Shown here piece by piece: positions 35,252 through 62,329 of a stretch of DNA of 64,000 nt (within the stretch, counting starts at the first letter, position 1; each line of letters begins with the position of its first letter). Under the pieces are notes generated by a model, which had not been told where the DNA came from, searched no databases, and saw only the letters and a program-made list of their open reading frames with translations. The DNA comes from Octopus vulgaris. Taxonomy: Eukaryota. Where the stretch lies: NCBI GenBank assembly GCA_951406725.2, contig OX597841.1, positions 14,446,001 through 14,510,000 of the forward strand. The letters are read 5' to 3'. The position numbers were made by a program, and so were the translations under genes.

Positions 35252-35462
35252 TACTCCTTTACTCTTTTATTTCTTTCAGTCATTTGACTGCGGCCATCCT
35301 GGAGCACTGCCTTTAGTGGAGCAGATCGATCCCAGGACTTATTCTTTGTAAGCCTAGTACTTATTCTATTGATCTTTTTTGCCGAACCGCTAAGTTACGG
35401 GGAGGTAAACACACCAGCATCGGCTGTCAAGCGATGTTGGGGGGACAAACACAGACACACAA

Positions 35463-35507
<45 letters not shown>

Positions 35508-35673
35508 TACGATGGGCTTCTTTCAGTTTCCGTCTACCAAATCTACTCACAAGGCTTTGGTCGGCCGCAGGCTAATAGTAGAAGACACTTGCCCAAGGTG
35601 CCACGCAGTGGGACTGAATCCAGAACCATGTGGTTCGTAAGCAAGCTACTTACCACACAGCCACTCCTACGCC
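35252..35673 (-). mobile_element. SINE-A
   Basis: Consensus match. Confidence 0.92.
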
Positions 35674-35701: not shown

Positions 35702-35748
<47 letters not shown>

Positions 35749-35813
35749 GGTCCCGGGTTGAGTCGGGGTTAACCACAGTAAATAAGGTACTCAATACATA
35801 GCAGAGTAAATTA

Positions 35814-35935
35814 ATTTATTTTATAGAAGGAGCTTCTACAGGACTAGAACTGTTTCATTCAAAAGAAATCATCAGCTTCCTGATGATTTCTTTTGAATGA
35901 AACAGTTCTAGTCCTGTAGAAGCTCCTTCTATAAA

Positions 35936-35941
<6 letters not shown>
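35814..35941. repeat. Perfect 62-bp inverted repeat with 4-nt spacer (Penelope-like inverted LTR fragment)
   Basis: Arms 35814-35875 and 35880-35941 are exact reverse complements; spacer CTTC. Confidence 0.95.
35874..35924 (+). ncRNA. Type I hammerhead ribozyme motif
   Basis: AGCTTC-CTGATGA-T(TTC TTTT GAA)T-GAAA-CAG(TTCTAGTC)CTG-TA^GAAGCT; predicted cleavage after A35918; AATAAA follows. Confidence 0.72.
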
Positions 35942-35985
<44 letters not shown>

Positions 35986-40069: not shown

Positions 40070-40618
40070 TATATGTGTCTGTGGTTGTGTCCCCCTGCCC
40101 CACAACATCACTTGACAACCAATGCTGGTGCATTTACGTCCCTGTAACTTAGCGGTTCGGCAAAAGAGTCGGATAGAATAAGTACTAGGCTTACAAAGAA
40201 TAAGTCCAGGGGTCGATTTGCTCGACTAAAGGCACTGCTCCAGACTGAAACAAGTAAAAGAAAAAAAGAATATATAAATATATATATATAGTGCATAGGG
40301 TACAAAATATGAAGGCAATTTGGCTTCTATTTCTAGCAGATGAAGACAACTTAGATGAAGTCTTCTTTACTGGCTTGGCATTGATGGTGGAGATGGTAGT
40401 GGTGATAGTAATGGTGGTAGTGGGAGGGTGTAGGCGATGGTGGATGGTGTTGCTAAAGTCGAAACATTTAATTAAATAAAGTTGCAGGTGAGAACAGGTA
40501 CATTTAACCTAATGACTCAGAGAAATTATTTAGGGACACCATCAGCACACAGAGATAGCAGTAAAGTATATTTTTTACTGATTACTGCTATCTCTGTGTG
40601 CTGATGATGTCCCTAAAT

Positions 40619-60285: not shown

Positions 60286-60860
60286 CTACTTACTTCCATG
60301 CAAGTCGTGCCATTCTGATGACAATTCCCGTAACTTAGACTTCAGGAAATCGTTCTCCTTCTTCACCACTTCCATGCGAGCCTTCATCTCCTTCTCCTCC
60401 CGAAGAGCTCGTTCTATACACAGAAGAGCCTCGTCCACTATCCTTTTCTGAGATGCCTTCGGGTCATCCTTCACAGCATCGATAACAACTCGGAGCTCGC
60501 TCAAAAGCTCACTCATCTGAGCCCTACGCCGCCTTTCCAACTCATTGTGGACAGCCTTTTCGCTGTGAGACATACATTTGCGCCTCTTAGTCTTTTCACT
60601 GAGAAGTCTCTCGTCTGCGGAGCGAGAATTCTTCGTACCCGAACTACCAAACGTGGTCGCAGCCACCGCCACACTGCTGGTGTTGTCGGATGAAGGCGAT
60701 GGCGATGAAGATATCAATGAAAATGACGACGATGACGATGATAAAGACTGTGGAGATGGTGGTGTTATCGGCGGTGTCAGTGGTGAATTCGAGGTGGACA
60801 CCTCAACAAGGATAGCTGGAGTAACTTTCGTAGCTCGGCGTAAAATCCCTGTTTGACGAG
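60286..60860 (-). CDS. Terminal coding exon of a Myc-like (Myc/Max/Mad network) bHLH-leucine-zipper transcription factor; upstream exons not found in window
   Basis: Acceptor TCTTCTATTGCAG at 60861 (phase 1), open frame to TAG. S/P-rich linker, basic region HNELERRRR with the H-E-R E-box residues, HLH, and zipper heptads M-V-L-L ending near the C-terminus as in Myc. Confidence 0.85.
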
Positions 60861-62329
60861 CTGCAATAGAAGAGGTAATACAAAAACGTTATTGCATATT
60901 AATACAAAGGACATTGCATGTAAAAACACTTTATCAGGGATAGGAATTTGGGAAAACCAGTCACCCCAAGTCCCGCAAACACCATCGGAAAGACAAAAAA
61001 GAAAAAAACGTGCAAGAAAGTAAGTTCTACTTCCGGAAGAAGGCGGAGAAGAAGAGATTTAAAATGTTGATAATCACGATATCATTTTCCGTTATTTCAT
61101 TTTTTAAAAAACCTGGTGGATTGGGGTGAGGGTGGGGTCGCATTTTCTCACGACCAGGGAACAGCTATTGAAAAAATACCGCCTGCTACGTCACTTGCAT
61201 CTTCTGCTTGTTTCAGTCAGACTGCGGCCAAACTGGAACACCGGCATCAACCGAATTTGCCCCACTACTTAGAATCATCCCAGCAGTCACTTTTGCAGAA
61301 CTGCGACATTACGGGGACGTCAACATATCAACACCACACTTGTCAAGTGGTGTTGGTGGAATATAGACATAAACGATGGGCTTCTTTCAGTTTCCCTCCA
61401 CCAAATCTACTGGTCCAGAGCTTAGTAGAAAATTTGGGGAAGTTGCCATGCAGAGGGACTGAACCCGGAACCATGTGGTTGGGAAGCAAACTTCTCACGC
61501 CTTTGCCTATACACACACAAAGAAAGATAGGAAGATAGGACACACACACACACACACGAACCGGCTTCTAATGGAACTCGTTCCAACTCTTATTAATATT
61601 GTTAGAACAGAGAAAGCCCCATAGACATAAAATCCTTCAACTCTTTACATGGGACCTACCATCATCCATAAAGTACTATATCATATACATTAAACTGTCC
61701 GTATACCCGAGACATTACACTAGACTCATACTTGGGTACCCCAGAAAGGTTTTCCCTATAACATTCAGGAAAAAGCATTCACCTGTGTTTAATGAAACTC
61801 TGCAGAGATACGTCTGAGGTAGAGTACGATTAATACGAGCAGTAATTCATTTTACTGAAGCACACCTCAAGGCAATGCTGTAGCTTGGCCGTAGCGCACA
61901 ATTTCGTCGAAAGAAAATTTGGATTTCTTCACGAAATTTTGAGGGTAGTAGGGCACGAAACTGTAGCCATGCCATCTACAGCTATACCGATTAATAGTCA
62001 TGCATTATATAAGACGAGCATCGACCACTTATCGATTTTACCCTAAACATGGGCGAACTAACTGGGACCAAGAGATTTCCAAGCAAAAGAAGGCGTGTGC
62101 GGCGACGGAGGGACACAGCCAACACGTACGTCTAGAAGGTACTACATACATATAGACTATGAAGAAATTTATTATATATACACACACAGATACACACATA
62201 CATATATCATAAAACTAGTGTAAGATGAGGTGATCTATGTGAGCTACCGAATACTGCGCAATTGAGTCGAGTGACCACCACTACTGCAACTACTACGTTT
62301 ATTAATGTTTAAAACAGTAAGACCGGCCG

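Follow-up and report, generated by a model that had tools for sequence, protein, structure and literature searches.

A short perfect hairpin in the octopus genome is a by-product of a Penelope-like element and probably joins two cDNAs that ran off the RNA 5' end

In Adineta vaga, EN+ Penelope-like elements (PLEs) have been described with head-to-head inverted pLTRs, a palindromic junction and a tail on one side only (PMC3846280; overview in PMC8557442), and the layout of the octopus stubs discussed here is thus already on record in these publications. The cause proposed for the Adineta palindromes is self-priming on an antisense template, and the mechanism was left open (PMC3846280); an in vitro system for PLEs has been called for (PMC8557442). 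In vitro work on an anole PLE reports that both strands are cut and extended and that two internal starts bound the tail, the protein being a predicted dimer and uncut RNA being used as template (PMC11167929). Another relevant group is the Hydra clade of C-terminal EN+ PLEs, characterized by DKT, a CxCX5C linker, CxxC/CxH, the lack of CCHH, RWK, (TA)n targets and a length that is generally <3 kb (PMC8557442). Here we show that a short perfect hairpin of Octopus vulgaris is a real but ordinary by-product of this known class of elements.

The hairpin lies in a stretch of 64,000 nucleotides of contig OX597841.1, which we refer to as the window. A first-pass annotation of this DNA had described a perfect 62-bp fold-back, and the inverted repeat is indeed present, with arms at 35814-35875 and 35880-35941 that pair without a mismatch around a 4-nt CTTC loop. 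It is one of two complex perfect inverted repeats in the window with arms of at least 18 bp and loops of at most 20 nt. The other one, at 40540-40606, has 24-bp arms and a 19-nt loop. We number the element from A35874, the base that opens hammerhead stem I (+1; Table 1). The left arm had been taken for the exact antisense of the right one, which is true of the 62 bp but overlooks 67 further element bases on the left side. The inversion had also been placed at the 5' edge of the ribozyme, and the short arm does start at the first base of stem I. The whole unit is embedded in (TA)n on both sides, another feature that had been overlooked; the long arm has a native ATAT that carries it on to about 35742 and blends into the target, and a target-site duplication is unreadable because (TA)n is present on both flanks.

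Table 1. Features of the hairpin locus, in positions of the window
Feature	Position	Strand	Remarks
Long (tailed) arm	35747..35875	-	element +7 to +135; 94-96% match to full-length copy L081
One-sided tail, 67 nt	35747..35813	-	in full-length copies points on to the ORF start
Short (untailed) arm	35874..35941	+	element +1 to +68; last AT-rich word blends into target
Microhomology AG, 2 nt, common to both arms at the joint	35874..35875	.	
Unpaired loop CTTC, 4 nt	35876..35879	+	element +3 to +6, single copy
Type I hammerhead motif	35874..35924	+	predicted cut after 35918; weak stem II, U.U at 10.1-11.1
Predicted 8-bp hairpin	35915..35933	+	overlaps cut site and stem I 3' strand; competitor of the hammerhead fold
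Left (TA)n target flank	35703..35745	.	
Right (TA)n target flank	35940..35973	.	

An abundant, dispersed SINE-like repeat of a type typical of octopus genomes adjoins the stub (35265-35665) and occurs in many other places, and a tandem array of C/A-rich units of 10, 14 and 24 nt runs from 37267 to about 38000. No host gene near the stub was found among the six frames run against Pfam, five of them from the window. About 24 kb from the stub, an open frame on the - strand (60289-60888) carries an HLH domain (Pfam E 4.6e-8) after a serine-rich stretch and resembles a last exon, presumably of a Myc-network gene.

Both arms are recognizable as pLTR pieces of an EN+ PLE, and their identity with the pLTR of a full-length copy bears out the inverted PLE structure that the earlier reading had suggested. 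This complete copy (L081) consists of a pLTR with the motif, the tail, a frame of 722 residues, a microsatellite-rich 3' region and a second pLTR. Its pLTRs recur with a period of 4.8 kb, the hammerhead motif lying at 3095 and 7879 on the same strand, and its ORF starts soon after the tail, ~180 nt after +1. Pfam gave neither an RT nor a GIY-YIG match on this parent ORF. Read by eye, the frame contains the motifs YRDDGL and VY..YIG, and the Atlas feature neighbours of the parent protein carry GIY-YIG or RVT_1 at 0.96-0.97. Furthermore, outward-facing pairs of arms several kb apart enclose pieces of RT/GIY-YIG frames, and family members on the kb scale (L083-L087) have the same inverted, head-to-head, one-tailed layout. 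At one locus (L062, 3402-5724, - strand), a different PLE with Pfam matches to RVT_1 and GIY-YIG is nested between family arms.

The translations of L081-L088 contain DKT, a CxCX5C linker, and CxxC and CxH around a conserved E and N, and they lack CCHH; the N-terminus of the parent has RWR at the place of the RWK in the description of the Hydra clade. Comparison of these by-eye motifs with the clade description fits a Hydra-like parent. The 4.8-kb unit exceeds the size described for this clade, which is a tendency only.

A search of the octopus genome itself (2.8 Gb) with the 195-bp unit returned 80 matches from 40 scored candidates, among them identical units that lie between different flanks on three contigs. 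Exact matches in the genome number 1128 for a 32-mer of the motif and 3351 for a 35-mer of the tail. The exact junction of the hairpin copy is present at 17 loci, the commonest class of joint is a zero-loop palindrome centred on AGCT (359 loci), and other joints contain small duplications or filler bases, the microhomology at the joint varying from copy to copy. All 30 loci inspected, and nearly all of 100 tailed ends, reach (TA)n, and two reach (CA)n. The many junction types exclude a single palindromic master. A MITE-like, self-propagating palindrome would be a uniform unit, which was not found, since there are many junction types, both polarities and several subfamilies. A non-LTR retrozyme was also rejected, the head-to-tail tandem monomers of such units being absent and the head-to-head pair being the only arrangement.

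On the right arm and the spacer, a full type I hammerhead had been claimed, and reading the stems and the core confirms it. The + strand at 35874-35924 holds a 6-bp stem I, CUGAUGA, a 3-bp stem II, GAAA, a 4-bp stem III and a GUA ending at 35918, which amounts to the conserved core bases and the three helices of this type. The core is also present on the - strand, where the 5' strand of stem I is missing, and no second hammerhead motif was found elsewhere in the 64-kb window. To call the core canonical is right for the conserved single-stranded bases and wrong for the G10.1-C11.1 pair, a feature of type I hammerheads (PMC4209133), in place of which the hairpin copy and the other copies inspected have U.U. 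The best Rfam match to the motif was Hammerhead_3 with 13.7 bits (E 1.1), below the gathering score of 48.5; in the Rfam scan of the whole window, no hammerhead was among the matches listed (150 of 203), most of them microsatellite-driven miRNA matches. Subfamilies vary at element positions +11 and +18 to +21, that is, at N7 and in loop II, and the core and stems are constant; variation limited to these sites is what selection on the fold in the source elements would give.

Folding predictions support the suggestion that read-through RNA would form a long duplex in which the ribozyme is sequestered. The whole fold-back is predicted to form a hairpin of -100.6 kcal/mol, and the probability of the hammerhead fold within it is about 5e-50. 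For the free motif, the predicted probability is 0.04 when it stands alone and 0.004-0.006 with the native 3' sequence, because an 8-bp hairpin, also predicted in natural copies without a fold-back, covers the cut site. Animal PLE hammerheads are reported to cleave poorly in vitro (PMC4209133).

The arm ends form a sharp peak at +1. For the first 100 tail matches (this sample and the following one were drawn from the start of contigs C1-C2 with exact patterns, which favours young copies), the 5' end of the tailed arm was mapped against a natural copy, and five rows were corrected by hand (three had internal deletions, and the upstream bases of two are those of a different subfamily). Of these ends, 27 lie at +1, 51 in +1 to +13 and 67 in +1 to +74; three lie in -13 to -1 and eight in -80 to -14, and 22 arms read through. 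An inverted partner is found within 25 nt of 55 of the 100 tailed arms, and the outer end of the partner falls at +60 to +76 in 55 of 57 cases. In a sample not selected for the tail (70 loci from the first 100 matches of the 32-mer), 47 of 79 arms stop at +1, and each of the 39 head-to-head pairs is made up of one long and one short arm. Exceptions occur elsewhere: L082 is a kb-scale pair of two short arms, and L220 has two long arms, one of which continues past the tail towards the ORF. At five further loci (L130, L173, L228, L230 and L067), both arms end at nearly one point upstream of +1, with paired ends at -31/-29, -13/-10, about -74/-74 and -38/-35 and, in L067, arms of ~330 nt. Some upstream-ending pairs have 180-240 nt of other DNA between the arms. 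Such pairs fit two cDNAs that both reach one RNA end. Other origins of the turn were considered and discarded. Ribozyme cleavage does not define it, as the predicted cut (+46) is the end point of only one of the 100 tailed arms; a later deletion that collapsed long inverted elements would not yield the sharp edge at +1 (51 versus 3 ends); and a native hairpin at the 5' edge is ruled out because the bases that natively precede +1 form no palindrome.

Several features of the DNA point to +1 as the start of the element RNA. Among 27 distinct upstream contexts with a TATA-like word, the word begins at -29 in 25, and this position is kept across subfamilies that differ in their last 12 bases, which lends modest support to a start at +1, given that the copies share ancestry. 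Copying of the cap is known to leave an additional G at the 5' ends of full-length copies. A G is present at -1 in 12 of the 19 joints that direct overlap does not explain (p 5e-4), about four of which could be templated by a partner CAGG. Counts for CAGG+N+AGCTT are G 15, T 7 and C 1, compared with G 4, T 3 and C 2 for control A in the same palindromes (p 0.01), and the G count includes background from A-to-G change in old palindromes. The joints of the form CAGGAAG+N+AGCTT (C 9, templated, and G 2, of 11) are too few to use. Among the 32-mer matches, the base at -1 is T in 448, G in 213, C in 43 and, by subtraction, A in 424; native and joint bases are mixed here, and these numbers were therefore not used as a count of stops. 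In one subfamily the base at -1 is C or A, so that it is not always a pyrimidine. From -12 to +2, the element has a pyrimidine tract followed by TAG, which might serve as a splice acceptor just where stem I begins. The family was not found in any run recorded as RNA; contigs of four runs presumed to be RNA fall on the pLTR and the tail-to-ORF joint, but a start, strand or level cannot be read from contigs, and they were left out of the evidence. Transcription most likely starts at +1, as inferred from DNA alone, and the stubs most likely fold back at the ribozyme edge because the RNA of the element begins there.

The two arms of a pair agree at subfamily sites in 33 of 34, 37 of 38, 40 of 40 and 45 of 50 pairs, against shuffled means of 17, 27, 20 and 25, respectively. 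Thus, the arms share subfamily bases far above shuffled pairs, and they therefore come from one source. Rare differences are common to both arms three times and restricted to one arm 23 times. The same concordance would result if only one master was active at any time, or if one arm had converted the other. To our knowledge, PLE RTs carry no RNase H domain, and one RNA could therefore serve twice.

On balance, we think that the hairpin is a promoterless stub, composed of two head-to-head pLTR pieces that probably derive from two cDNAs which ran off the RNA 5' end and annealed. Transcription would begin at +1, where hammerhead stem I opens, with the TATA word 29 nt before it. The GIY-YIG domain would cut both strands of a (TA)n tract, and each free end would prime reverse transcription at an internal site, one near +68 and the other near +135. 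Both sites would be present in the 3' pLTR and also close to where the RNA starts. When the 5' pair is used, the cDNAs would run out of template after 68 and 135 nt, and a C may sometimes be gained opposite the cap. The identical 3' ends of the cDNAs would then join, mostly via AGCT and in the hairpin copy via AG/CT, each joined cDNA templating the second strand of the other. The hammerhead would be a passenger in this process, and the template RNA would be mostly uncut.

Considering the evidence from the joints together with the in vitro results on the anole PLE, the simplest reading is that priming is paired and that the cDNAs run off where the RNA begins. A more general proposal is that PLEs integrate in this manner: a dimer would start two cDNAs at staggered sites on one RNA, one per target strand, and the insertion would be closed by annealing of the cDNA ends. 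The stubs would then be integrated "strong-stop" products that map the capped start to the first base of the hammerhead, and the ribozyme would be the 5' end of an RNA that is normally uncut. We regard this general proposal as evenly poised between right and wrong. If true, it would replace antisense self-priming as the cause of inverted pLTRs and one-sided tails. A search of largely open-access literature returned no model with two cDNAs or with run-off.

Similar structures might arise when a single cDNA, or an antisense template, snaps back, is copied as far as the AT-rich word and is resolved by the endonuclease, in line with the self-priming reading given for the Penelope palindromes of Adineta (PMC3846280). 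Such an origin, which we consider rather unlikely, would account for the agreement between arms at subfamily sites, and the AG-GAAG-CT end could make a small hairpin. The polarity that it predicts is observed in seven of the 17 copies with the exact junction. In the other 10, however, including the hairpin copy, the arm that reaches farther, to +1 in the hairpin copy, lacks the tail; it offers no template for a tail, and the tailed arm is therefore not a fold-back copy of it. Exchange between the arms after insertion could flip the polarity of the loop, which weakens this argument. The zero-loop AGCT joint of 359 loci also argues against snap-back: a single strand could hardly loop there, as it would have to prime from 1 bp on a 2-nt loop, whereas AGCT is self-complementary and would give two identical cDNA ends an intermolecular 4-bp sticky end. 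More doubtful is the possibility that two cDNAs were made as we propose, but that +1 marks a stall, for instance at a stem I bound by protein, or RNA processing, for instance at an intron end, and not a start. In most subfamilies the pyrimidine tract is followed by TAG at -1 to +2, in Penelope of Drosophila virilis the intron ends where helix I begins (PMC4209133), and the start at +1 is read from DNA. Yet the peak lies at +1, with 27 ends compared with four at +3, the arms that stop at +1 have no upstream exon in common, and a stall upon entering stem I would be located at +51; both the TATA word at -29 and the excess of G at -1 favour a start over a stall.

The idea that the lock on the ribozyme is a regulatory design, as the first-pass annotation had envisaged, finds little in its favour. 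It would make the hairpin a functional switch, or a self-propagating palindromic mini-element, in which the ribozyme would be kept silent by the antisense arm and released by editing or by an internal start. The duplex would sequester the whole motif, three copies of the 195-bp unit are identical, and inverted Penelope copies yield siRNAs in transformed Drosophila (PMC3681739). The stub, however, lacks the TATA-bearing upstream sequence, its junctions vary between copies, as expected of independent events, and occur in both polarities and several subfamilies, and in the folding predictions the free motif rarely adopts the hammerhead fold, owing to its own 3' hairpin. Moreover, the same arms flank kb-long copies that bear the ORF, the hairpin copy shows no sign of conservation, and the position of the inversion is explained by cDNA ends and not by selection for silencing. 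We therefore hold a functional switch to be improbable; the lock exists in the folding predictions but is incidental. Some library methods are known to generate perfect palindromes as artefacts, and the fold-back might in principle be a chimera of library preparation or assembly. This can be practically dismissed, as the arms stop at ends defined by the element and have unrelated flanks at many loci, the exact junction is shared by 17 loci, and head-to-head joints are also present in contigs of two of four other public runs (X15 and X16).

The interpretation of the hairpin as a joint of two run-off cDNAs has implications beyond this locus. Short perfect hairpins in the octopus genome can be by-products of insertion and not selected RNA structures. 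By analogy with the inverted Penelope copies of Drosophila, small RNAs are a plausible by-product of the stub if the locus is read through, and stub hairpins could in this way still feed small-RNA or editing pathways. The size of the family makes the question of the PLE mechanism testable: a young and abundant family has recorded hundreds of independent joints, and these make sharp predictions, namely a start at one base, two priming sites and two cDNAs per insertion.

Two better-known processes resemble parts of our proposal. In LINE-1 twin priming, two target-strand primers act on one RNA, and adjacent, non-overlapping parts of the element are inverted without a mirror copy. The octopus proposal likewise involves two primers, two target strands and one RNA, but its outcome is a mirror copy. 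The minus-strand strong-stop DNA of LTR elements is a short cDNA that runs off the end of a capped RNA, as we propose for the stubs; unlike these, it is primed by a tRNA and is transferred instead of being integrated.

Among the described PLEs, those of Adineta vaga share with the octopus stubs an inverted, 5'-truncated terminal copy placed head to head, a one-sided tail, a short overlap at the joint, a TATA in the pLTR and an AT-rich target. In contrast, the octopus stub has no body, its tail measures 67 nt compared with 30-40 nt, and hundreds of octopus joints are piled up at one base. With the described Hydra clade, the octopus family shares DKT, the CxCX5C linker, CxxC/CxH, the lack of CCHH, a hammerhead of canonical type and a (TA)n target, and it differs by having RWR and not RWK, and 4.8 kb with a microsatellite-rich 3' region versus <3 kb. 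Non-LTR retrozymes, which have been described as head-to-tail tandem monomers (bioRxiv 10.64898/2026.07.22.740005), are likewise short, non-coding, PLE-derived units with a type I hammerhead, whereas the octopus unit is a head-to-head pair without a monomer repeat. Poseidon of Anolis (PAc; PMC11167929) would resemble the octopus family in the two fixed end points that bound the tail, in the use of both target strands and in the uncut template, the octopus side of this comparison being our proposal. The results of the PAc account do not describe the joining of two cDNAs or run-off stubs, and the PAc hammerhead overlaps the start codon, whereas the octopus ORF starts ~180 nt after +1 (PMC11167929).
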